The notes under the pieces were generated by a model. That model did not search any database, was not told the DNA's origin, and saw nothing but the letters and a program-made list of their open reading frames with translations. Positions 1 through 16,018 of a DNA stretch of 18,983 nucleotides are shown one piece after another (positions within the stretch are counted from its first letter, which is position 1; every line of letters begins with the position of its first letter). The DNA is from Candidatus Bruticola sp. (GTDB taxonomy: Bacteria; Vulcanimicrobiota; Xenobia; Xenobiales; Xenobiaceae), in assembly GCA_051874735.1 (NCBI GenBank), contig JBJEGD010000007.1, positions 1-18,983 on the forward strand. Direction: 5' to 3'. The position numbers were made by a program, and so were the translations under genes.

Positions 1-630
1 AAGATGTTCCCGAAAGATGGTGCAAATGTACCGGAAGTGCGCTTTAAAGGATTTACAGAGGCTTGGAAACAGCGCAAGGCTGCAGATATAGCTGATTATT
101 CAAAAGGAAATGGTTATTCCAAGAGTGATTTAACGGAAATCGGAACACCGATAATACTATACGGTAGACTTTACACGAAGTATAGATTTGCTATTGACGA
201 AGTAGATACTTTTGCCGCTCCCAAAGATGGCTCTATTTACAGTCAAGGCAATGAAGTAATAATACCTGCTTCAGGAGAGACCGCCGAAGACATTGCAAGG
301 GCTTCATCCGTTGAAAAATCAGGGATTTTGCTTGGTGGAGATCTGAATATTGTTCGTCCTTTTAAATTCATTAATCCTTTGTTTTTAACACTTGCCATTT
401 CAAGTGGTGAACCACAGAAAGAACTGGCTAAAAAGGCACAAGGGAAATCAGTTGTTCATATTCATAATTCGGATATTAAAGAGTTACTTATATGGCTTCC
501 AACAATAGCAGAACAACAGAAAATAGGTTCCTATTTTCGCAACCTCGACCACCTTATCACCCTTCATCAGCGCGAGTTGGAAAAACTGCAAAGCCTCAAA
601 AAAGCTCTGCTGGAAAAAATGTTTGTCTGA
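1..630 (+). CDS. hsdS: Type I restriction-modification specificity subunit, C-terminal half (5' end outside the window)
   Basis: The frame is open from base 1 (K-M-F-P). It has the central conserved region KMFP..VPEVRFKGFTEAWKQRK, one TRD, and the conserved C-terminus P..EQQKIGSYFRNLDHLITLHQRELEKLQSLKKALLEKMFV typical of HsdS. Confidence 0.95.
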   Translation, partial: KMFPKDGANVPEVRFKGFTEAWKQRKAADIADYSKGNGYSKSDLTEIGTPIILYGRLYTKYRFAIDEVDTFAAPKDGSIYSQGNEVIIPASGETAEDIARASSVEKSGILLGGDLNIVRPFKFINPLFLTLAISSGEPQKELAKKAQGKSVVHIHNSDIKELLIWLPTIAEQQKIGSYFRNLDHLITLHQRELEKLQSLKKALLEKMFV

Positions 631-6275: not shown

Positions 6276-7199
6276 CTACGACCAAGCATCTTTACGACGA
6301 GTTATTTCTTCTTTAGGAATAAAATCTTCCTTTATGCTCTTATTGAGTTCCGCACGAATCATAATCACGCAAAGAAAACCTATACAAATAATGCCAAAAA
6401 TATCAGTATCAGTAATTTTGCCTCTAAATAGCCACATTAAACAGATAAAAACTACACATAAGCTCACACCAGCCGCAATAATTTCCTTGCGCTCGGCGTC
6501 GCCATCTTTGATAAAGATATTAGTGATCTCCCTCAAATACCCGCCGCCAGGAATAGGATGTTCTTTCAAAAAAGTCCAAGGTAAAAGCTCACGAGCCACA
6601 ATAGCTCCCAAAGGTACCAGCAGAATAGAGATGACCCACAAAGGCCATGAACTATGATTAAAAAGTGCAGTTAAATAGATAAAACTACTTGATACACTTA
6701 ACCACATGATTCCCAAACTGACTAAGGCAGCTCCAGTCATGGTGTAATTAGTGACTGAACCATCTTTTATATGCGTCAGCATTCTCTCCTCTATGCCGAA
6801 ATAAGGCAGATAACGAATAGCCGCCACTGTCAAAATAATAGTTAAATCTATATATATAGCCAAAAGGGCGGCGGCAGCTATCATTACAGCCGACAGACTG
6901 GGGAAAGGGGTCCTAAAAAAGGCCAGCAAGTCTAGTCCCAATATAGCCACTGACCAAGACAAGATGTGATACACATAAGATTTGTTAACTCTTACACTGC
7001 ACCAAAAAAGGAAAGCTGCCGCAAAGATAAGCAGCACCCCTACATTAATTGACGTACTGTCAAAAGGCCAAAAATAATTGCCAACTTCTTTAAGCAGGTC
7101 TATATCAAAAGGATTTACCAAAGATCGCTGCAAACTCGGGTGAACAGCCAGATCCTGATAAGATTGACCAGCTGCCTGAGCTAGAAAAAATAAAGACAT
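6276..7199 (-). CDS. Hypothetical polytopic membrane protein (about 7-8 TM segments)
   Basis: 307-aa ORF with several long hydrophobic stretches and an AAGGGG RBS before the ATG. No family recognised. Confidence 0.8.
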   Translation of the reverse strand: MSLFFLAQAAGQSYQDLAVHPSLQRSLVNPFDIDLLKEVGNYFWPFDSTSINVGVLLIFAAAFLFWCSVRVNKSYVYHILSWSVAILGLDLLAFFRTPFPSLSAVMIAAAALLAIYIDLTIILTVAAIRYLPYFGIEERMLTHIKDGSVTNYTMTGAALVSLGIMWLSVSSSFIYLTALFNHSSWPLWVISILLVPLGAIVARELLPWTFLKEHPIPGGGYLREITNIFIKDGDAERKEIIAAGVSLCVVFICLMWLFRGKITDTDIFGIICIGFLCVIMIRAELNKSIKEDFIPKEEITRRKDAWS

Positions 7200-7250: not shown

Positions 7251-9293
7251 TTAGTCTTCATCTAGCACTAAATTAGGTATGTTTCCGTTCGCCCATTCTA
7301 AGACGGCCGTCCCTCCGGCCGGCATATCCAGCCAAACATGCTCTCTCCTATCGCTGCTTAACTGTTTAACTGAGGGAACTCCGGTTCCTTCAACCATCGT
7401 CCAAATAGGCATTTCTGCTTGCTTTGCTTCCAATTCCTGCATACGTGTTTTCACATTTTGATCAGCAATGGAATGCATAACCAGCCTAGCTTTACCATCT
7501 TTCATTTTTATCCAACGCCTGCCCACAGCCGGATCGACAACAATGGAATCTAAAATGGCCGGGCTCTTCATCAAAAGTCCAGCAAAACGAACTCCCACAG
7601 AATGAGGTCCCTGACGCAGCGAACGCGGACCATTTATAAAAGCGCTGTCCACAAAAGGATCATCGGTAGCTCCGCCTAAGTTAACTCTGAAAATCTGGTC
7701 TCCATCAATGCGCACCATAATGGATACTAAAGCTCCTGAAAAATTGCTCTTCAGGAAATCCATGGCAAAATAGTATAAGTCGTCGCGCTCTACATCGAAG
7801 CGCATCCAAAACATATTGTCACGTCCCACTACCACAAACTGGCCGGGAGTACCCCCAGGATAAGCGATATCAGAAGTATCAAAAGCTCTCTCGACCGCTC
7901 TGCCGGCTTCAAGTTCTACGGTGGTGCCTGCGAAAGGACGGCAGATATCTTTGGCCCCAATCCACTCTGAGCATCCGTGCAATGAAAGCAAATAATTGAT
8001 CAAGCTTTTCGCTTTGGCATTGGAGCTACTGTTGGAGAAATAATTAATATCTGCAGCTGCGGATCCGGCTAAAGTACCGTAAATATTATTGCCGGTGCAA
8101 TCTTTGAGAGCCAACAAATTTTCTACTACGGAAACTACGCCCAAAATAGAGCGAACCTCTTCTTCAGGACGAGGAGCCAAGCAGTAAGGTATTTTCCCAC
8201 TTAAGGCCAATTTAGCTAACAGTCCCAATCCCTCTTTTTCGGCAGACACTTTAAAATCGTCATTTTTGAGTATTTTATAAGCCTTAACCAGAGCCATAGC
8301 CACATATTGTCGTTCAGGATAAAGCGTAATACCAGCTACTTTTTTGTCAGATTGCGGAACTTGATAATTGCGCAAGCGGTTACTTTCAGTAGCATATGAA
8401 AGGTGAGCTCCGTAAGGATAGTGCTTTGTATCGGGACGAAGGCAAGTAGCTAAACCTCTAGCCAGCTTATCAATTTTGTCTCTCCGATCAGCAGACGGAT
8501 GATAGCTTTCTAAATAGCATAAAGCTAAAACGGCCTGCGAAGCGACATCTGTCCGTCCGAAAATCCAAGCTGGTTCAATGACGCCGTGAACCACACTGCT
8601 TCGTCCGTACACTTTAAGCCATTCATCGACAAAGGATAAATCTTGTTCAGCAGACTTAACTAGCTCATCTGCTAAAGCACCATGACCAGAAACAATCAGC
8701 GCAGCCCTAGATTTTATATGGGCTGCATAAGTTTTTAAAAACAAATCAGCGCCGTAGTCTTTACTACATAAACGCTCTAGCCTATTTAAAGCAGCTTTAT
8801 CAAGAGAGGCTCCGTTCTTACACTGAATTAAATTGTAATAAATGTCAAATAACTCTTGATAACCAGCATCAGACGTTTTTTCTGAGATGACGATCTGGTC
8901 GTTGGAAGAATCGTTAGGCTGCACTACTGCCTTCTTATTTATTGACTGAGCAGCTGGAGCAGACTTCGTCTGTACCGTATATTGCGGAGCGGTCTGGAGA
9001 TCTGACTCTGCAGAACGGGGCCCAGGAGCAGCTAAGGAAGAATCGGCTTTCTTACGACTGTCAGAACCAATTTCCGTTTCGCCGACAGGGGCAGACTCAT
9101 TTTTTTCAGGCAAACTACAACTTTCATCCGTGGGCGCTGCTGAAGTGCTATCAACCGCTTCATGAATACTGTTAACCGGATGAGGAGGAACAAAAAGTTC
9201 GTCATCGTTGTTCTGAGCTACTGCCCATCCAGAATCAGCTAAAACCAGGCCAAGGAAAAGAAAAGCATACTTGCAATATTTGTTCATTTTCAA
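7251..9293 (-). CDS. Secreted protein: low-complexity linker, six-hairpin-glycosidase-like helical domain, CBM6/CBM35-like beta-sandwich
   Basis: Signal peptide ending AVA-Q and an S/P/A/E-rich segment at aa 30-140. Helical repeats such as ALVKAYKILKND and LLALKDCTGNNIY. C-terminal ELEAG...VRIDG...LRQGPHSVGVRF...LDSIVVDP. The ORF is secure; the domain calls are inference. Confidence 0.7.
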   Translation of the reverse strand: MKMNKYCKYAFLFLGLVLADSGWAVAQNNDDELFVPPHPVNSIHEAVDSTSAAPTDESCSLPEKNESAPVGETEIGSDSRKKADSSLAAPGPRSAESDLQTAPQYTVQTKSAPAAQSINKKAVVQPNDSSNDQIVISEKTSDAGYQELFDIYYNLIQCKNGASLDKAALNRLERLCSKDYGADLFLKTYAAHIKSRAALIVSGHGALADELVKSAEQDLSFVDEWLKVYGRSSVVHGVIEPAWIFGRTDVASQAVLALCYLESYHPSADRRDKIDKLARGLATCLRPDTKHYPYGAHLSYATESNRLRNYQVPQSDKKVAGITLYPERQYVAMALVKAYKILKNDDFKVSAEKEGLGLLAKLALSGKIPYCLAPRPEEEVRSILGVVSVVENLLALKDCTGNNIYGTLAGSAAADINYFSNSSSNAKAKSLINYLLSLHGCSEWIGAKDICRPFAGTTVELEAGRAVERAFDTSDIAYPGGTPGQFVVVGRDNMFWMRFDVERDDLYYFAMDFLKSNFSGALVSIMVRIDGDQIFRVNLGGATDDPFVDSAFINGPRSLRQGPHSVGVRFAGLLMKSPAILDSIVVDPAVGRRWIKMKDGKARLVMHSIADQNVKTRMQELEAKQAEMPIWTMVEGTGVPSVKQLSSDRREHVWLDMPAGGTAVLEWANGNIPNLVLDED

Positions 9294-9306
9294 AGCAACT
9301 TTAGGA

Positions 9307-10146
9307 CTACAAATTAGGATAATCTAGGGGGTCTATTTGTTCAGCTGGCTGAGGGGATAAGGCTCCAGAATCGGGTTCTATCATTTTCGGTTGAGCTATT
9401 GCAGATTTCTGACTGTTTGAATCTGAACTTAAATTCTCACTCTCAATCAGAAAGCTGCCCACTACTCGCCCTGCAGCTTCTACTTGATTGGTGCTTAAAT
9501 TAACACGAACCCGCTCACAAGAGAGCCAATCACTTTCATCATCCTCTAAGCGCACATTACCAAAAAGCTCTACAGCAGCGCTGTTACGATCGTATTTGGC
9601 TTTATCAGCAAAAACCCGGCGTTTTCCCTGAATGAAACGAATGGCCCCCTTAGCGTAGCCTATACCTTGAGCCCAGCTATATTCAAATTCATCGGCTTCT
9701 AAATAAGCGGGTTCTGCTGCCCCTAACTCAGCGGTAGATTCATCTGAAGAATTTTTAAGCCTAAATTTTGTTGATACGACCTTAACTCCGCCTTTAAGGA
9801 CGGCCTTTTGATCGGCGTAGTAAACACGCATAGCCCGGCCGCTAACAGACGTGCCAGGCTGATATAACTTTATATTGCCTTGAAAATCGGCAACTTGAGT
9901 ATCGGTATGATACTTGGCAAAAGAAGAAGTCATAACCGCATCGCGGCATGTAAATTTCACATTGCCTATTAGTCTAACTAACTTCTCTTTCTCGCTGTAA
10001 TCACCACGGTCAGAATTTAAAGTAACGGATTGCTTACCCAGCGGAACACTTTCTCTGCTCGGATCAGCTGCTGCCGGGCTCAAACAGTAAAAGCTCAAAC
10101 TGCAAGCTGCAGCCAATGCTGCCAAACAAAGACGAATATTCACCAC
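9307..10146 (-). CDS. LptA/OstA-family periplasmic beta-jellyroll protein with tandem repeats
   Basis: Signal peptide and six repeats of the type (L/F)x(A/S)Dxxx(Y)......GN(V/I)x(L/F), e.g. LNSDRGDYSEKEKLVRLIGNVKF and VFADKAKYDRNSAAVELFGNVRL. GAGGG RBS. Confidence 0.82.
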   Translation of the reverse strand: MVNIRLCLAALAAACSLSFYCLSPAAADPSRESVPLGKQSVTLNSDRGDYSEKEKLVRLIGNVKFTCRDAVMTSSFAKYHTDTQVADFQGNIKLYQPGTSVSGRAMRVYYADQKAVLKGGVKVVSTKFRLKNSSDESTAELGAAEPAYLEADEFEYSWAQGIGYAKGAIRFIQGKRRVFADKAKYDRNSAAVELFGNVRLEDDESDWLSCERVRVNLSTNQVEAAGRVVGSFLIESENLSSDSNSQKSAIAQPKMIEPDSGALSPQPAEQIDPLDYPNL

Positions 10147-10271
10147 AAACCCTCACACTATAGACATAATACAGTCTAAAAATGGCTGGCTGTATTCGCC
10201 GTTAAAGCAGACATACCCCACTAAAAGACCAAATTAATTAAAATATTTGAAGCTGTCTGCCACAAGAACAT

Positions 10272-11069
10272 TCATTTAAAATGAGCCATACAGTACATTA
10301 TCACTGCCCCGGCAGCGGCTACATTGAGAGATTCACTTTTTAAAGCCAAAGGGATATGAACTTTTATATGCTCTTTACTGCGCCAAGATCTATCGACGCC
10401 CTTTACTTCAGCTCCGAGTATTAAAGCCGATTTTTCGGGAAAACTTACTTCATTGATATTGCGTCCACCGTGAGCTTCAGCAGTGATTAAAGAGAAACCG
10501 TTCTCTCTCAACTTCTGGCTCCAATAATCTAGTTCATCTTCAGCTGCCCGCAATACTGGGAGATGAAAAACTCCACCAGCCGCCGAACGCACAGCTCTAG
10601 CATTATAAGGATCAGCCCCTCCACAAACTAAAACGGCTTCAAAATTAAAAGCCAAAGCCGATCGAATTAAAGTGCCTACGTTGCCGGGATCTTGAATCTG
10701 ACTTAACACCAGCAGTCGAGATACCGAAAGAATATTTTCAGCTTCGAACTGAGGCAGTTCAGCTACCGCTAAAACTCCTTGACTAGTTTTAGCGGCAGAA
10801 AGATCTTGCATCAGGGAATCAGAGGCAATCCAAATAGAAGCTTGAGGACGCTGTTTTTTTACTTGCTCAGCCCACTGGAAAGCCTCTGAAGCTATTAAAC
10901 GCTCAGAAATAAGCAGATGCACAATGTCGAGATTAGATGAAAGCAGTTCTTCAACCACTCTTATCCCCTCGACTAAGAAGCGCCCTGTCTCCGCACGATG
11001 TCCGGGAGAATCGAGACGCTTAATTTCTTTTACTAAGCGGCTATGCCGCCCTATAATTTCAAATTCCAT
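10272..11069 (-). CDS. TrmH/SpoU-family RNA 2'-O-methyltransferase
   Basis: N-terminal FLVEG substrate-binding domain and SPOUT motifs QDPGNVGTLIRSA, ILGAExxGV and IP...SESLNVAAAG. Confidence 0.95.
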   Translation of the reverse strand: MEFEIIGRHSRLVKEIKRLDSPGHRAETGRFLVEGIRVVEELLSSNLDIVHLLISERLIASEAFQWAEQVKKQRPQASIWIASDSLMQDLSAAKTSQGVLAVAELPQFEAENILSVSRLLVLSQIQDPGNVGTLIRSALAFNFEAVLVCGGADPYNARAVRSAAGGVFHLPVLRAAEDELDYWSQKLRENGFSLITAEAHGGRNINEVSFPEKSALILGAEVKGVDRSWRSKEHIKVHIPLALKSESLNVAAAGAVIMYCMAHFK

Positions 11070-11072
11070 GTT

Positions 11073-11309
11073 TTACAAATAATCGGATACCCTATACAGC
11101 TTTCCTTCTACTGTTACCGTATCCGAAGGATTGAGATGGCGACCACGCTGCAAGCAGGGCTGCCCGTTAACTTCAACGCAGCCCTGCTGAATGAGCAGTT
11201 TCCCTTCACCACCAGTACCAACAATACCGGCTAGTTTGAGAAACTGCCCTAAACGTATGCAGACATCATAATCTGTAGACTCTTCCCAAGAAGAAAAATC
11301 TGTTTTCAC
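11073..11309 (-). CDS. S4-domain RNA-binding protein (YaaA/YbcJ family)
   Basis: IRLGQFLKLAGIVGTGGEGKLLIQQGCVEVNG..CLQRGRHL..SDTVTV. The start is placed at the in-frame GTG at 11309, 4 nt after the upstream stop, instead of 11369, which would overlap the upstream gene by 56 nt. Confidence 0.9.
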   Translation of the reverse strand: MKTDFSSWEESTDYDVCIRLGQFLKLAGIVGTGGEGKLLIQQGCVEVNGQPCLQRGRHLNPSDTVTVEGKLYRVSDYL

Positions 11310-11313
11310 GATG

Positions 11314-13014
11314 CTACTGTTCAGCCTCTTCTTCAATATAATCTTCGACGGGCAATCCAGCCTGCTCACGACAGGCTTTTACCAATTCATCAATTTCTCT
11401 AGCACCGCGCTGCACTCTAATGGAAGCATCGCGCAGGCCGCGCACTCCCTCTACCAAGTTAATAGAGTTGTGATCAGTTATGAAGAGGCGCAGACGCTCG
11501 ACAGCCTCGAGCATAGCCCTAGCCCCGTTATCTATTTCTGAACGGCTGCTAGCGATTTGGTTCTCAATAACGCGAAGCTGCTCTAACTCTTCTTCATTAA
11601 AATCGGAACTATCGAGTTCAGGCTCAGGAGGCAAATTAATAAGATTGTCTTCGATTAACTTGCAGAACCAATCGAGCACTTCGCCGTACTCTTCTCCAGT
11701 GATGCGCCCTTCAGCAACTTTGTTAACCGCTTCGAAAATAGTGACCAAATTTTTGGTCATAACTAACTCGCCGCCGTACTGCATTTGGCCGCTGTCTTCC
11801 TGGAAATCCATAGTTGAATTCTGCATACCGCTGCCGATAGTTGAACTGAGCATACGGGCACCACAATTAGAACAGGAGCGGTTGGCAGGATCGTTGTAAG
11901 TGCCGCAGTGGATGCAGGGAACTTTCTCAGCTTGCTCGCCTATCTTGTCAAAGTTCTCTTTACTAGCATAGAGAGCGTCGGCAGCCTTATTGAGCAGAGC
12001 CACAGCTTCGTAAAAATCGGCTTCTCCACCCTCAACTGCAGCTTCAAACATACTGATAGCCTTAAAATGATCGTCGAAAGCAGCCCGACAAGCCACCATC
12101 TGCTCACCGATTTCTTCACATTCGTTAGGGATGGAAGCTAGTGATTCGATTTCGCGACGCAAATCATCGATACTAGTGCGGAACTGCTCAAGCGATCTGA
12201 GGAAGGACTCTTTATCAAGGCGGCCATTCTTCCAAGACTTAGCCAAATTAATAATCAGGTTGACCTGAGGCAGTTTGCTATCCCCCTTAGTAGCCAGAGC
12301 CATAGTCAAACTCTCGACAGACTGACGCAAAGATGCACCAGCGTTCACAATATCTTCAATATAAGGCTGCATAGCTTCTGGACCATCGTCCAAAACTTGG
12401 CGGAGCTCCAAAACGGTATCTGCGAAGTCGCAGTAAGCACTCATTAAGCTCTCTTTTTGATAATCGCTGGCTTCTTCGTTAGTATTTACATCGTTGGCGG
12501 CCACTCTGGCATTAACGTAGATATTAACGATAGTGCGCTCGATAGCAGCTTTAGAAACGGCTTCCTGTACAAAGCCGTCGCAAAGACGAACCAATACATT
12601 TATCATGGGCATATTGGTCGGCCCCATCTCGCCTTCTTCTCGAGTATAACCTTCAAAGAGCAGACGTCCGTTGAGACCTACGCTCAAAATAGTATCGTAA
12701 GCCTGCTGGAACATATCATCGCTTTTAGTTTCAATATAGGTAAGAAGATCGCGAAGACCGGCACTATAATCTTCTAAAGCAGATTTGATCTCATTAATTA
12801 TCTCAGGGGGCACAGCCAGACATTCATTGCCGCCTTCTTCAAGTTTAGCTACCACTTCTTTTTTTGTTCTGTCAACGATAGCTAACTGCTCAACTGCAAT
12901 TAAAGCCAATGATTGAAACTCAAACTCACCAGCGCGAGCATGTTCCATTCTGTCTAAAATTGTATTGCAAACTGGGGAAACCGTAGGCGGGATATATCCC
13001 ATATTATCAGACAT
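11314..13014 (-). CDS. Hypothetical acidic all-alpha protein with four internal ~115-130-aa repeats and a CxxC-x10-CxxC zinc ribbon
   Basis: 566-aa ORF with an AGGAGG RBS and CIHCGTYNDPANRSCSNCG at aa 367-385. Repeat starts at about aa 9, 131, 244 and 416. No signal peptide or TM segment. Confidence 0.85.
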   Translation of the reverse strand: MSDNMGYIPPTVSPVCNTILDRMEHARAGEFEFQSLALIAVEQLAIVDRTKKEVVAKLEEGGNECLAVPPEIINEIKSALEDYSAGLRDLLTYIETKSDDMFQQAYDTILSVGLNGRLLFEGYTREEGEMGPTNMPMINVLVRLCDGFVQEAVSKAAIERTIVNIYVNARVAANDVNTNEEASDYQKESLMSAYCDFADTVLELRQVLDDGPEAMQPYIEDIVNAGASLRQSVESLTMALATKGDSKLPQVNLIINLAKSWKNGRLDKESFLRSLEQFRTSIDDLRREIESLASIPNECEEIGEQMVACRAAFDDHFKAISMFEAAVEGGEADFYEAVALLNKAADALYASKENFDKIGEQAEKVPCIHCGTYNDPANRSCSNCGARMLSSTIGSGMQNSTMDFQEDSGQMQYGGELVMTKNLVTIFEAVNKVAEGRITGEEYGEVLDWFCKLIEDNLINLPPEPELDSSDFNEEELEQLRVIENQIASSRSEIDNGARAMLEAVERLRLFITDHNSINLVEGVRGLRDASIRVQRGAREIDELVKACREQAGLPVEDYIEEEAEQ

Positions 13015-13023
13015 GCGATAGAA

Positions 13024-13036
13024 GCCTCCTGAGCTT
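13024..13036 (-). promoter_or_regulatory. RBS-containing 13-nt motif AAGCTCAGGAGGC (copy 1)
   Basis: Lies 9 nt upstream of the ATG at 13014 and is identical to 16027-16039. Confidence 0.7.
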
Positions 13037-13296
13037 TTTTGTTAACGTCGAACTACTGTCAACAAATTACACGATAAAAGATATTTTCCTGTTAAAACAT
13101 ATTCAATTATTTTTTATACTGCGCAGAGATATAAGCTTTTAAAGCGTTAATCACCGCTTTTTTCCCTGCTAGATACAAAATAGTGCGATTAGTTTCAAAT
13201 TATTTATTGTTTTAGTTATACAATGATAAACAGTTTTTAATGACTATTTATCAATTTTATGAAACAATTAAGCGGACAAAAAAAGGGGGGAATTAT

Positions 13297-14418
13297 ATGC
13301 AGCTTAATTTACAATCTGCTAAATACCAGACAAACTGCTCGCCAGATAAGTTAGCTATTTTATGGACGCTTTTATCCTCTGTTAAGGGCTTATCTGAAGC
13401 TAAGCTCAACAGATTAGCCGTTAAACTAGACTTTAATCCCGAACTTGTCAAAGAAGAACTGCAAAGACAAAACGAACAGCGTCCTGAGAGCCGCAAGTAC
13501 GTTTTTCCAACTTTTGATCAAGCCGCCAAACAATGGTACATTCACAGCCGCAAGTATAAAGTAATTTCCATAAATGATAGCAGCTATCCTCAACAGCTGC
13601 TCGATTTAGACGATCCACCTGTCTTGCTGTACTGTCGAGGCAGCGGTTCGTTAAACTTCAGCAGCGTTTCTATTGTCGGATCGAGGCAAGCAGATGGATA
13701 CGGTCAAGCTGTGGCCAGGCAGCTCAGTTCATCCTTAGCCCAATACGGTCTAACTATAGTCAGCGGCTTGGCTTTGGGAGTAGATACCTGCGCCCACCAG
13801 GGAGCTTTAGCGGTGCAAGGATCTACCGCTGCGGTATTAGGCTGCGGTATAAACATATGTTACCCAGTTATCAACCGCAATCTCAGTCAAGCTATCGAAC
13901 AAAACGGATTAATAATTTCCGAATATCCGGAAAATTATCGTCCCATGCCGTACAATTTCCCTTACCGCAATCGTATAATTGCAGCTCTATCAGGGGCGAC
14001 TTTAGTCGTTCAAGCTAAATATAAAAGCGGCGCCATGATTACTGCAGATATAGCCGCTAATTTAGGACGCCAGGTCTTGGCTGTTCCCGGTCAAATCAAT
14101 GTCAGTCAAAGCGAAGGGCCTCTAGAGCTGCTGGCCAACGGAGCTGGATTAGTCAGAAACAGCCTCGATGTTTTAGATAGCTTAGGCCTGATTCTGCCGG
14201 AAAAAACGGACGCTTCCTGCTCAGATCAGCTGATTTTAACTGCGATCGATTCTGATATACTAAAAGCTATCGATAGCAGCGGAACTGATACCAATACTAT
14301 TGCCGAACGTACCTCTTGTCCTATGGGATACTTGGTACTGTCTTTAAGAAAACTTGAATTAGGCGGATACGTGATGCGCTTACCTAACTCTCTATGGATA
14401 AAAACTGGGAGACTTTGA
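13297..14418 (+). CDS. dprA: DNA-processing protein DprA (Smf)
   Basis: Motifs YPQQL..LDDPPVLLYCRG, IVGSR, VSGLALGVDTCAH, FPYRNRIIAALS, SGAMITA and AVPG, with a C-terminal winged-helix-like end (LELGGYV). ATG 13297 is chosen over 13240 because GGGGGG lies 6 nt upstream. Confidence 0.96.
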   Translation: MQLNLQSAKYQTNCSPDKLAILWTLLSSVKGLSEAKLNRLAVKLDFNPELVKEELQRQNEQRPESRKYVFPTFDQAAKQWYIHSRKYKVISINDSSYPQQLLDLDDPPVLLYCRGSGSLNFSSVSIVGSRQADGYGQAVARQLSSSLAQYGLTIVSGLALGVDTCAHQGALAVQGSTAAVLGCGINICYPVINRNLSQAIEQNGLIISEYPENYRPMPYNFPYRNRIIAALSGATLVVQAKYKSGAMITADIAANLGRQVLAVPGQINVSQSEGPLELLANGAGLVRNSLDVLDSLGLILPEKTDASCSDQLILTAIDSDILKAIDSSGTDTNTIAERTSCPMGYLVLSLRKLELGGYVMRLPNSLWIKTGRL

Positions 14419-14422
14419 TAAG

Positions 14423-16018
14423 CTACTTCATAACACTTCTGGGAACTATATCTTCTAAACGTGGCATCTCTCCTATAGGCATAGTGGTAACGTATACAGA
14501 AGACGTAACGGTATTGCCGCTTTCTGCTTCTCGACAAATTATCTGAGCCCCAGTGGCGTCAAAAGAAGGAGCGTAGTAAATAGCGCTATTATCGCTGATT
14601 ACTTCCAGTCTTCCCTTTCCGTCGATAGACCACAAATAACGTTTTTTCCGCTCTGCTTCTCGGTTCTGCTCTTTTTGCTCATAGTCTTGAAATTTGGAGC
14701 CGTTTACTCCGTAGCGTTCATGAATGCGCTTAATTTGCTGTTCTGTTTTGCCAGGTAAAGCTTCAGCAGTTAAAATAATATGTTCCCCAGGGCGAAGCAC
14801 GCATGAGGCGGGCACAACTTTAAAAAGAGGCGTTTCAGCCACAGCATCGGCCAATTCTAAATCGGCGAATCCAGCCGGTTTAGCCGAAAGACGACCAGTA
14901 AGAAGGCAGCGCCGATCTTCATAGTCAACTAAAGCTTCCATTCCCCCGTAACGCACCATGAACCTATCTAAATTGGGTTTAGCTGTAGGGAGATTATTTT
15001 TATCCAAAGAGAGCGAGCATATTTGGTAAACGCCCGTAGGCAAATCGCGCATATCGATAGTGCGTATCCCCTGAGAACCTTCCAAAATCCAGGCTTTAGC
15101 AGCTTTCCCGCGATCGTCAGGAAGCTGAGGCATATGGAAAGCTAAAAGCAGCAGCTTATCTCCTTTTACAGAATTTATATTGTAACGAACTTTAGCTTTA
15201 GCATATTTGTTTATTTCTGCATTTTTAGCGCAGTTATCTATAAAATATCGCGGCGTAGTCTTTACTAAACTGCTGTCTTGCCAAAGTTCTTTAAGTTCCT
15301 GATCTGAGAGCGGATAACTTGAATTTTTAGTAACTGTCTGCACATTTTTAGGAACAAAAGGGACACTCAGAGCTTTCTGACCAGTTTGAGAAGCATTTTC
15401 CTTAGGAACGGAATTTACGGGCATTTCTGTAAGCTGCTCTTCCGGCGACCAATTATTATGGCGATCAGATTCGGAAGGGGCGACCTCAGTGAGGACACCG
15501 TTATCATATTTAAAATTAGGATCGCCCAAACTAGGCGCCGGAACAGACGGAGCTGGCATAACTACACCTGTAGGCTGCTCAGATTCTGGACTGGCAGAAG
15601 AATTTTTAGCTCCCAATTTAAAATGAACTTCTTCAGCTTTAACTTTTTGGGGACGGGCTTCAGGATAAGTGCCCTCATTTCCATCTTTGGGAGCCTGAAT
15701 ATCTTTAACACGAAAAGTTTCAGAGCGCTGTTTAGTGTAAGAGGCTTTAGGATAGGCTACTCTATTTTTAGGCCCACGCTTAACTGCCTCACTGTCTCTT
15801 GTTTCAGCGGCAGCCGAATCTGTTTCTGCAGCATCTCCTGAAGATTGATTAATGACAATATCAGTAACTTCAATACCGTCTTCATTAACTGAATGTTTTA
15901 TTACGGTATGCTGAGACAGGTCAACTTGCTTAGTACCGCCTTCCTCTGCTTCTGCTGTCACTGCCCACATACTAGACATAATATAAGCCAACAAAAATAA
16001 AGTTCGGCCAACACGCAT
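14423..16018 (-). CDS. Hypothetical secreted protein with a disordered N-terminal half and C-terminal Ig-like beta domain(s)
   Basis: Signal peptide (AVTAEA-E), AGGAGG RBS and a P/S/E-rich region. The C-terminus VVPASCVLRPGEHIILTA...YLWSIDGKG......AIYYAP...AQII...SGNTVTSSVYV resembles bacterial Ig-like domains. Confidence 0.72.
   Translation of the reverse strand: MRVGRTLFLLAYIMSSMWAVTAEAEEGGTKQVDLSQHTVIKHSVNEDGIEVTDIVINQSSGDAAETDSAAAETRDSEAVKRGPKNRVAYPKASYTKQRSETFRVKDIQAPKDGNEGTYPEARPQKVKAEEVHFKLGAKNSSASPESEQPTGVVMPAPSVPAPSLGDPNFKYDNGVLTEVAPSESDRHNNWSPEEQLTEMPVNSVPKENASQTGQKALSVPFVPKNVQTVTKNSSYPLSDQELKELWQDSSLVKTTPRYFIDNCAKNAEINKYAKAKVRYNINSVKGDKLLLLAFHMPQLPDDRGKAAKAWILEGSQGIRTIDMRDLPTGVYQICSLSLDKNNLPTAKPNLDRFMVRYGGMEALVDYEDRRCLLTGRLSAKPAGFADLELADAVAETPLFKVVPASCVLRPGEHIILTAEALPGKTEQQIKRIHERYGVNGSKFQDYEQKEQNREAERKKRYLWSIDGKGRLEVISDNSAIYYAPSFDATGAQIICREAESGNTVTSSVYVTTMPIGEMPRLEDIVPRSVMK

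Follow-up and report, generated by a model that had tools for sequence, protein, structure and literature searches.

The question raised by this locus, which lies in an 18,983-nt stretch of DNA (the window), is what kind of protein is encoded by an open reading frame that a first-pass annotation had assigned to no recognized family, and what that protein may do in the cell. The features bearing on this question are collected in Table 1. The gene at 11314–13014 is real and strongly conserved: comparison with its orthologues gave dN/dS values of 0.03–0.07, which indicates strong purifying selection on the gene. The 566-aa product is acidic, with a pI of 4.38 and 104 Asp and Glu residues versus 52 Lys and Arg residues, and the median pI across its protein family is 4.65. 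Since the Kyte-Doolittle mean over 19 residues peaks at only 1.11, the protein has no membrane span, and its earlier description as acidic and cytoplasmic was borne out.

Table 1. Features of the gene, its product, and the adjoining genes (R, repeat; Zn, zinc ribbon; aa, residues of the 566-aa protein).
Feature	Position in the window	Strand	Basis
AGGAGG Shine-Dalgarno-like hexamer, 10 nt before the ATG	13025..13030	(-)	Read from the sequence
Whole ORF, 566 aa and TAG stop, architecture R-R-R-Zn-R	11314..13014	(-)	Open from ATG to TAG
Repeat 1, aa 8-124, four-helix bundle	12643..12993	(-)	hhalign and AlphaFold2 helices
Repeat 2, aa 125-242, opening with G131-P-T-x-x-P136-x-x-N139	12289..12642	(-)	hhalign, AlphaFold2, alignment
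Repeat 3, aa 243-362, opening with G244-D-S-x-x-P-x-x-N252	11929..12288	(-)	hhalign, AlphaFold2, alignment
C4 zinc ribbon, aa 363-388 (K364, C367, C370, N374, C381, C384)	11851..11928	(-)	Motif, invariant Cys
Disordered Gly/Ser/Gln linker, aa 389-411, with conserved S400-T401-x4-E406	11782..11850	(-)	pLDDT, alignment
Repeat 4, aa 412-552, terminal four-helix bundle	11359..11781	(-)	hhalign, architecture survey, AlphaFold2
Acidic C-terminal tail, aa 553-566	11317..11358	(-)	Low conservation, 0.70 bits per column
S4-domain (YaaA-like) gene, downstream, likely GTG start 4 nt after the TAG	11073..11309	(-)	Pfam S4_2, E 4e-20
SpoU/RlmB-like RNA 2'-O-methyltransferase gene, 3 nt after the S4 stop	10272..11069	(-)	Pfam SpoU_methylase, E 2e-33

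Four diverged repeats had been proposed to start at residues 9, 131, 244, and 416; the strings quoted for them were all located at these residues, and the four strings given as matching second halves share the same columns of the repeat alignment. The significance of the repeats was evaluated with hhalign, for which four repeat sub-alignments were cut from a 60-sequence family alignment. Each repeat-versus-repeat comparison gave a probability of 97.4–99.3% (E 1.5e-11 to 1.1e-20, 96–113 columns), whereas the controls gave at most 24% with a reversed partner (E 8e-4 or worse) and at most 1.1% with a column-shuffled partner (E 0.049 or worse). The AlphaFold2 model consists of four up-down four-helix bundles, with helices at residues 14–27, 33–60, 70–96, and 99–129 (bundle 1), 136–149, 155–177, 184–210, and 212–241 (bundle 2), 249–262, 268–293, 300–327, and 331–362 (bundle 3), and 421–434, 440–459, 474–514, and 517–551 (bundle 4). 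Its mean pLDDT and pTM were 90.2 and 0.61 when 60 sequences were used and 77.1 and 0.52 when 8 were used. Each of the four repeats is a four-helix bundle homologous to the others, and short conserved GPTxxP loops connect the bundles in the model. The motif at these junctions, G-P-T-x-x-P-x-x-N, marks the start of a repeat; it reads G131-P-T-N-M-P-M-I-N139, and its variant G244-D-S-K-L-P-Q-V-N252 opens the third repeat.

A CxxC-x10-CxxC motif followed by a Gly/Ser/Gln linker had also been noted, and it maps exactly, as C367-x2-C370-x10-C381-x2-C384 coincides with nt 11863–11916. Its position, together with the AlphaFold2 bundles, places a zinc ribbon between repeats 3 and 4, as had been annotated. 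Both CxxC knuckles are present and are predicted to ligate zinc; the four cysteines are invariant in 60 sequences, and the segment has a pLDDT of 84–87 with short strands predicted at residues 365–366 and 373–374. It is the best-conserved segment of the protein, with 2.51 bits per column versus 1.36–1.71 in the bundles. Residues 394–413 of the linker region have a pLDDT below 50, and S400, T401, and E406, each conserved at more than 3 bits, lie within this stretch. On the 566-aa protein, Pfam gave sub-threshold matches to PF13240 (Zn_Ribbon_1; E 5.9e-4, 20.0 bits versus a cut-off of 25) and PF12773 (DZR; 17.7 bits versus a cut-off of 27.3). The present ribbon shares with these families the CxxC-x10-CxxC spacing and the Gly that follows the second Cys in either knuckle, but it is flanked by helical bundles and its place in the architecture is fixed, and membership in PF13240 or PF12773 is uninformative on function.

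The protein is not an orphan, and 237 cluster representatives were recovered in an exhaustive search for its relatives. Among 157 relatives, the architecture was RRRZR in 117, RZR in 19, RRZR in 16, and another in 5, where R denotes the repeat and Z the zinc ribbon. Wherever the ribbon is present in these relatives, it directly precedes the last repeat, and a CxxC...CxxC pattern occurs in 154 of the 157 members; this ORF likewise has its ribbon and linker just before the last repeat. The same genomes, including that of the source organism with its 168-aa ZR paralogue, also encode stand-alone ZR proteins of 165–190 aa, which are 45–60% identical between taxonomic families of the phylum. Such short ribbon-plus-bundle paralogues align to profile positions 363–548, so that the zinc ribbon and repeat 4 represent the core ZR module of the family. 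Ten ORFs bearing the repeat were found in the 2.5-Mb genome of the source organism, and several ancient paralogues occur in each sampled genome of most Vulcanimicrobiota lineages, including this reduced gut genome. This large paralogous family and its fixed rule of a ribbon before the last bundle go beyond the first-pass annotation.

The protein had further been supposed to be lineage-specific, which agrees with its distribution. Full-length relatives occur in most taxonomic families of Vulcanimicrobiota (class Xenobia and others), and none was found in the largest sampled taxonomic family of the phylum or in 402 genomes drawn from two further phyla; they were found only in Vulcanimicrobiota, in part of the phylum. 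The orthologues form a clade of 18 rows from three taxonomic families with a support of 100. The gene is an order-wide conserved orthologue within a Vulcanimicrobiota-specific paralogous family of RRRZR architecture. Database searches agreed that no named family applies. Zinc ribbon apart, no family of Pfam, NCBIfam, or PDB covers the 566-aa protein, and among 60 relatives Pfam (E ≤0.01) detected DZR in 40 and Zn_Ribbon_1 in 32 and, zinc ribbons aside, no family common to them. The matches of a profile search in PDB were confined to designed helical bundles, a single coiled coil from a chemoreceptor, and the zinc ribbons of eL40, and look-ups in the ESM Atlas matched solely nameless clusters from Vulcanimicrobiota. 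A search for homologous proteins with the 60-sequence alignment returned only 7 close relatives; the search for related loci used an 8-sequence alignment. One further match in Pfam/NCBIfam, ZorA2 (E 0.0056), was at chance level and was rejected. As for the literature, the matches listed for Xenobia or Eremiobacterota included nothing on this protein, those listed for bacterial four-helix bundles, zinc ribbons, or tandem repeats included nothing relevant, and a query joining "vinculin-like," bacteria, and "helical bundle" gave no match. RRRZR/ZR is a newly defined protein family without an existing Pfam or NCBIfam model.

Vulcanimicrobiota (Eremiobacterota/WPS-2) are abundant in soils and are also present in animal guts, and we know of no cultured member of the class Xenobia. 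Conserved families restricted to one lineage usually mark lineage-specific cell biology. The family defined here is well conserved, its structural model is confident, and its architecture follows a strict rule. Its clear boundaries, conserved residues suited to mutagenesis, and candidate operon context make it directly testable.

The neighborhood of the gene, another subject beyond the earlier annotation, is a tight three-gene operon headed by the RRRZR gene, followed by genes for an S4 RNA-binding protein and an RNA 2'-O-methyltransferase, with spacers of 4 and 3 nt in the window. The S4 protein scores 55.6 bits against NCBIfam YaaA_near_RecF, below its cut-off. The methyltransferase also carries an MRM3-like substrate-binding domain of Pfam, and its best NCBIfam match, RlmB, is likewise below the cut-off. 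In the organism's own taxonomic family, the S4 gene lies downstream of the RRRZR gene in 17/17 loci and the SpoU gene in 16/17, mostly with 1–13 nt from the RRRZR stop to the S4 start. The order RRRZR-S4-SpoU is kept in all five sampled genera of this family, down to 26–37% identity, and the identities of the RRRZR protein and the methyltransferase run in parallel (88/86, 80/82, 57/56, 47/50, and 37/39%). A scan of positions 9200–13400 detected no terminator between the three genes and no excess of promoters (6 versus 6.6 in shuffles). The three genes are almost certainly co-transcribed in the organism's taxonomic family.

This linkage ends at the boundary of the taxonomic family. Neither S4 nor SpoU was found within 1.5 kb in any of 13 loci of two sister families, where the RRRZR gene neighbors genes for a DnaJ-TPR protein, an adenylate-kinase-like protein, and MetH, and where SpoU was located approximately 2.2 kb off on the opposite strand in 3/3 records. 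The DnaJ-TPR and adenylate-kinase-like genes are located elsewhere in the source organism's own genome. No common partner was found among 77 ORFs near eight paralogue loci of this genome, and no Pfam family was common to the 120 neighbors of 30 paralogue loci in other genomes. These 30 were obtained from 35 fetched loci by excluding L081, L091, L096, L111, and L112, in which the family gene had been lost by a crude ORF caller. Prediction of a complex between the 566-aa protein and the S4 protein (14 alignment rows each) gave a score of 0.00 in both runs, which carries no weight either way.

We tentatively favor the reading that the RRRZR protein is a soluble scaffold or adaptor that mediates interactions, has no enzymatic activity, and has as its core the module of zinc ribbon and last bundle. 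Signs of catalysis or cofactor binding were absent, as the only invariant residues among 60 diverse members are N139, N252, and the four zinc cysteines, and zinc ribbons are all that these members have in common in Pfam. An ancestral ZR module of ribbon, linker, and bundle would have given rise to the longer forms by duplication of N-terminal bundles. The conserved docking core would comprise the ribbon plus the initial helices of the final bundle, the S-T-x4-E motif of the linker could serve either docking or Ser/Thr phosphorylation, and the three acidic N-terminal bundles with their rigid GPTxxPxxN junctions may constitute an extended platform. Because the gene is almost certainly co-transcribed with the S4 and RlmB-like methyltransferase genes in the organism's taxonomic family, the process served may be related to ribosomes or RNA. 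Against the scaffold reading stand the loss of the S4/SpoU linkage outside the taxonomic family and the lack of a shared Pfam family among the paralogue neighbors. A generic four-helix bundle is also silent on function, and "scaffold" is in part the label given by default when a helical repeat protein lacks catalytic motifs.

The operon itself could be taken further, with the protein acting directly as a factor of ribosome biogenesis or RNA metabolism, either by its acidic bundles chaperoning or holding basic proteins that bind RNA or belong to the ribosome, for example the co-encoded S4 protein, or by its ribbon contacting rRNA while the 50S subunit matures, jointly with the RlmB-like methyltransferase. 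The tight packing of the genes, their order retained across five genera, the YaaA-like and RlmB-like nature of the neighbors (below the NCBIfam cut-offs), and the strong acidity of the protein are consistent with this, as is the presence of ribosomal protein eL40 among the best PDB sequence matches of the ribbon (E 2.9e-5, 24 residues). However, the eL40 match reflects only the generic zinc-ribbon motif, the linkage is lost in the sister families, and the other paralogues lie in unrelated gene contexts, which leaves such a factor rather unlikely. It is less likely still that the protein is a regulatory factor whose ribbon docks on a large assembly, for example RNA polymerase, with the paralogues providing different specificities. 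Anti-sigma factors and DksA-type proteins are zinc-finger or helical-bundle regulators to which it may be compared. The ribbon is indeed the most conserved and an obligatory part of the family, the small ZR paralogues are of typical regulator size, the linker motif could be a phospho-switch, and proteins combining a zinc ribbon with FHA are encoded in the organism's genome. Nevertheless, sigma factor and RNA polymerase genes were absent from all sampled neighborhoods, neither anti-sigma nor DksA families were matched in Pfam or NCBIfam, and the zinc-binding pattern is that of a plain C4 ribbon.

The resemblance to vinculin/talin-like rods suggested by the first-pass annotation held only as regards the ranking of structural matches. 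With both AlphaFold2 models, Foldseek ranked vinculin and alpha-catenin first (6bfi, E 0.019 and 1.1e-3; 6o3e, E 4e-3), but the best row (E 1.1e-3) has a TM of 0.17 and an rmsd of 35 Å for a query model whose pTM is only 0.61, and these rows span TM 0.13–0.18 and rmsd 20–35 Å overall. VIA-align lists talin, vinculin, and FAT bundles at Z 9–10. Its rows covering several bundles have an rmsd of 14–23 Å, and a multi-bundle superposition on the vinculin type gave Z 10.4 and 23.5 Å, again for a model of pTM 0.61. Since none of these matches is significant, the resemblance appears to be that of a generic string of four-helix bundles. The rods of vinculin, alpha-catenin, and talin (6bfi, 6o3e, 5xfl, and 8vdo) are likewise soluble and built of consecutive up-down four-helix bundles. 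The RRRZR protein differs from them in showing approximately 11% identity and no sequence relationship, in joining its bundles by short GPTxxP loops, in having its chain broken by a zinc ribbon and a disordered linker, and in being bacterial and confined to one phylum, whereas they are eukaryotic. To our knowledge, Vulcanimicrobiota have no actin, talin, or cadherin partners.

A cytoskeletal or membrane-associated rod, whose bundles would open in the manner of these proteins, bind amphipathic helices of partners, or polymerize, appears improbable, even though the many paralogues per genome could make a modular set of rods. Pfam Vinculin matched neither the protein (E ≤0.1) nor 60 relatives (E ≤0.01), single-bundle Z values reach at most 12.5, below the level that VIA-align itself treats as meaningful for helical bundles, no membrane-binding segment exists, and the conserved neighbors include no cytoskeletal or division gene. 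Nothing was found in support of the cytoskeletal or membrane-remodeling role that had been suggested. It is similarly a long shot that the RRRZR and ZR proteins are phylum-specific modular cytoplasmic rods, a bacterial counterpart of vinculin/talin/catenin adaptors, of which several ancient paralogues per cell assemble via the ZR module and a phospho-regulated linker into a new scaffold or cytoskeleton-like system. The least probable reading, and a very doubtful one, is that of a small-ligand sensor in which one or more bundles bind a metabolite or metal, like the periplasmic four-helix-bundle domains of chemoreceptors or copper-storage bundles. The ligand-binding domain of PcaY_PP is among the VIA-align rows at Z 9.5, as are copper-storage proteins at Z 9.1–9.6, but these values are inside the generic range for helical bundles and Pfam gave no match to a 4HB_MCP-type sensor; the bundles carry no conserved clusters of Cys, His, Asp, or Glu in the 60-sequence alignment, and none of 157 members has a signaling output domain.

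Single bundles superpose on generic or designed four-helix bundles (6egc and 6w6x) and FAT-type bundles (3t6g, 6jmu, and 4xev), with Z 10–12.5 and rmsd 2.2–3.1 Å over 105–143 residues. These share no sequence similarity with the protein, their Z values lie in the tool's range for unrelated helical bundles, and no function can be transferred from them. EzrA of Bacillota is a cytoplasmic interaction platform of approximately 560 aa with tandem helical-bundle repeats; these are spectrin-like and three-helical, the N terminus carries a membrane anchor, and a zinc ribbon is absent. Compared with EzrA by this description, the RRRZR protein has neither a membrane span nor three-helix repeats.

The RRRZR gene, named for the order of its four-helix-bundle repeats (R) and C4 zinc ribbon (Z), is preceded by AGGAGG 10 nt upstream of the ATG, as read from the sequence. 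It encodes a soluble, acidic protein in which four homologous bundles follow one another, with a pI of 4.38, 104 D+E against 52 K+R, and no membrane span (highest 19-residue hydropathy 1.11), in agreement with the acidic protein described in the first-pass annotation. The gene is real and under strong constraint: dN/dS by the Nei–Gojobori method was 0.03–0.07 against orthologues at 77–88% identity, the least saturated pair giving dN 0.015 and dS 0.47. Identities to orthologues ran in parallel for the RRRZR protein and the neighbouring SpoU-family methyltransferase (88/86, 80/82, 57/56, 47/50, and 37/39%).

Each repeat string quoted in that annotation was located at its residue, and the zinc ribbon was found as Cys367-x2-Cys370-x10-Cys381-x2-Cys384 (nt 11863–11916), followed by the Gly/Ser/Gln stretch. 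The significance of the repeats was evaluated by splitting a 60-sequence family alignment into the four proposed repeats and comparing them profile to profile. All six pairs gave probabilities of 97.4–99.3% (E 1.5e-11 to 1.1e-20) over 96–113 columns, so that the four repeats are homologous. The same profiles gave at best 24% (E 8e-4) when one partner was reversed and 1.1% (E 0.049) when its columns were shuffled, which indicates that the signal is not explained by helical composition alone. The AlphaFold2 model consists of four four-helix bundles of the up-down type, with a small ribbon at 363–388 and a disordered segment at 394–413; the mean pLDDT was 77 with 8 sequences and 90.2 with 60 sequences (pTM 0.61). 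These results bear out the first-pass description of the repeats and the ribbon.

An exhaustive HMMER search over 1.84 billion cluster representatives gave 237 matches at E ≤1e-3, 113 at 1e-10, and 24 at 1e-30, mostly collinear and 500–600 aa long. When 157 relatives were scored with an HMM of one repeat and for the presence of CxxC...CxxC, 117 had the RRRZR architecture, 19 RZR, 16 RRZR, and five others, with the ribbon, where present, always located before the last repeat. The C4 ribbon is obligatory, its pattern being detected in 154 of these relatives (median pI 4.65), and it is the most conserved segment (2.51 bits per column versus 1.36–1.71 for the bundles). The disordered linker also bears a conserved motif, S400, T401, and E406 each exceeding 3 bits. 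Among 60 diverse members, N139, N252, and the four ribbon cysteines are invariant, and G131, P136, P245, N374, and G523 nearly so. When aligned jointly, 240 repeat segments shared a start pattern, G-P-T-x-x-P-x-x-N-x-L, a Gly approximately 12 residues past it, and corresponding hydrophobic positions.

The first-pass annotation recognised no family, and Pfam and NCBIfam likewise yielded only sub-threshold zinc ribbons. Ribbons were also the only Pfam families common to 60 relatives (DZR in 40, Zn_Ribbon_1 in 32), and a PDB profile search retrieved designed bundles and eL40 zinc ribbons. The proposed likeness to vinculin or talin rods was borne out in so far as sponge vinculin and then alpha-catenins headed the Foldseek rows, but no match reached E 1e-3; vinculin gave E 0.019, and 1.1e-3 with the better model, at a TM of 0.17–0.18 and an rmsd of 32–35 Å. 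VIA-align against 48,161 chains gave Z ≤12.5, where values under about 13 are common among unrelated helical bundles according to the tool itself, and always with single bundles, the designed protein 6egc scoring highest; rows covering several bundles (vinculin, catenin, talin) had an rmsd of 14–23 Å. These results indicate a generic four-helix bundle that is like vinculin in general build only, and a cytoskeletal rod is considered improbable. The bundle and the ribbon are parts of known kinds. Neither the family nor its fixed architecture or junction motif is present in the Pfam, NCBIfam, and PDB libraries searched or, judged by search listings, in the literature searched.

The RRRZR/ZR proteins are an ancient family, present in multiple copies and restricted to a part of a single phylum. 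Among named relatives, the closest, at 88%, belongs to Candidatus Bruticola of the class Xenobia (Vulcanimicrobiota), and 17 public records with full-length relatives were UBP9, Xenobia, or Eremiobacteraeota MAGs, or were unlabelled or evidently mislabelled. The family profile matched 85 of 201 Vulcanimicrobiota genomes, a number that includes the unpublished genome G127 with a single weak match. Among the numbered families of these genomes, every genome of f1–f14 and f16–f19 matched in several strong places, which are not copy numbers; matches were found in only 10 of 114 genomes of f15, the largest family (near E 1e-4), in 6 of 15 of f20, and in none of the 3 of f21. The RRRZR protein itself matched all genomes of f1 (18), f2 (5), and f3 (16) at E ≤1e-10. 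As a control, the profile was applied to two sets of 201 genomes each, one drawn from the phylum to which a Ruminococcaceae record belongs and the other from that of a Desulfobacterales record. No match exceeded 29 bits, and nearly all lay within profile positions ~345–400, the zinc ribbon, which upholds the lineage-specific character proposed earlier. Orthologues of 80%, 37%, and 30% identity are present in records L055, L060, and L067, whose titles, Candidatus Riflebacteria or Burkholderiales, look wrong; the S4–SpoU order of Xenobia genomes is present in L055 and L060 and absent in L067.

The gene is not an orphan. A six-frame search of the 2.47-Mb own assembly gave ten ORFs with the repeat, listed below, and two more matching through zinc ribbons only; the paralogue neighbourhoods are unrelated housekeeping genes. 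In a FastTree of 47 members, a quick tree with several rows on long branches and some trimmed ORFs, the RRRZR gene grouped with the orthologues of f1, f2, and f3 in a clade of 18 rows (support 100). The remaining paralogues form distinct clades that likewise span families, indicating that the paralogy is old. The 168-aa ZR protein (ribbon, linker, and last bundle) has 76 relatives of 92–294 aa, those named being Ca. Bruticola, Ca. Xenobium, or Eremiobacteraeota, and is 45–60% identical across families of Vulcanimicrobiota.

Features of the window and paralogues in the own genome (L-numbers, retrieved loci)
Feature	Position	Strand	Remarks
RRRZR gene	window 11314–13014	-	566-codon ORF
S4 gene	window 11073–11369	-	longest ORF 98 aa from GTG 11369; 56-nt overlap with end of RRRZR gene
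Large protein, N-terminal hydrophobic leader	window 7251–9293	-	680 aa; no Pfam family
Large protein, N-terminal hydrophobic leader	window 14423–16018	-	531 aa; no Pfam family
Multi-span membrane protein	window 6276–7199	-	307 aa; no Pfam family
5'-truncated ORF	window 1–630	+	ends in helical sequence
Second RRRZR			paralogue
R-R-R-Z-R variant			paralogue, 636 aa
RRZR	L014:6152–7402	-	paralogue, 416 aa
Zinc-ribbon protein	L014:5500–6177	-	225 aa; directly follows RRZR
Tandem pair, first	L019:5848–7044	-	paralogue, about 400 aa, ending in ZR
Tandem pair, second	L019:7096–8310	-	paralogue, about 400 aa, ending in ZR
Three ZR proteins			paralogues, 165–190 aa
Repeats-only protein			paralogue
ZR paralogue of divergent pair (one of the three ZR proteins)	L017:6131–6637	-
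Signal-peptide protein of divergent pair	L017:6855–7643	+

Together with two RNA-related genes, the RRRZR gene forms an operon at the level of its family. The downstream S4 gene matches Pfam S4_2 (E 4e-20), and the SpoU gene, beginning 3 nt beyond the S4 stop, matches SpoU_methylase and an MRM3-like substrate-binding domain; the best NCBIfam models, YaaA_near_RecF and RlmB, respectively, were both below cut-off. The Pfam S4 match starts at residue 37 of the longest ORF, and a possible GTG start at 11309, 4 nt past the RRRZR TAG, fits because the resulting 78-aa protein compares with orthologues of 68–87 aa. Within the own family, S4 lies downstream in 17/17 loci and SpoU in 16/17, down to 26–37% identity, with gaps from stop to S4 start of mostly 1–13 nt. 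A dedicated ribosome or RNA factor would suit these partners, and yet it appears unlikely: neither gene lies within 1.5 kb at any of 13 sister-family loci, where the gene is instead flanked by genes for a DnaJ-TPR protein and an adenylate-kinase-like protein, and for either MetH or Leu/Phe-tRNA protein transferase. SpoU is ~2.2 kb off on the opposite strand in three f2 records.

The lack of a catalytic or cofactor signature, together with peak conservation in the ribbon, linker, and last-bundle start, makes an interaction scaffold the most likely role, which we propose tentatively, as somewhat short of an even chance. Its core would be the ZR module, and the N-terminal bundles may have arisen by duplication and act as a platform. 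A regulator that docks on a large machine through its zinc ribbon is rated as low as the cytoskeletal rod, and a ligand sensor is very improbable; a remainder of the probability is assigned to no reading. RRRZR is a clean, testable, lineage-defining family, with no surprising mechanism in sight yet.

Other associations were observed around the paralogues. At 20 of the 30 loci L114–L143, from many Vulcanimicrobiota families, the short, highly conserved ZR paralogue and a gene encoding a signal-peptide protein of ~262 aa are divergently transcribed, and the signal-peptide protein has a weak Pfam LolA_like match (E 1.5e-6, below cut-off). At several paralogue loci from six other families (f9, f11, f12, f17, f18, and f19), a common gene adjoins the RRRZR paralogue 5' on the same strand (L097, L102, L103, L106–L109, and weakly L104), e.g., L102:1995–3149:+ before L102:3550–5187:+. 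It encodes 360–425 aa, in which a glycine zipper at the N-terminus and a middle rich in Gly/Met/Tyr/Gln precede a C-terminal WGDPH-motif domain; in four of seven scanned, this domain matches Pfam DUF1521 at E 8e-6 to 7e-4, reaching the cut-off in two. DUF1521 is the domain by which rhizobial NopE1 cleaves itself upon induction by metal. The own genome has no homologue of the upstream gene. Within the window, the two leader proteins gave no credible NCBIfam match, the single one being at chance level (E 0.072, 531 aa), and the helical end of the 5'-truncated ORF appears to resemble the C-terminal half of HsdS, the specificity subunit of type I restriction systems.
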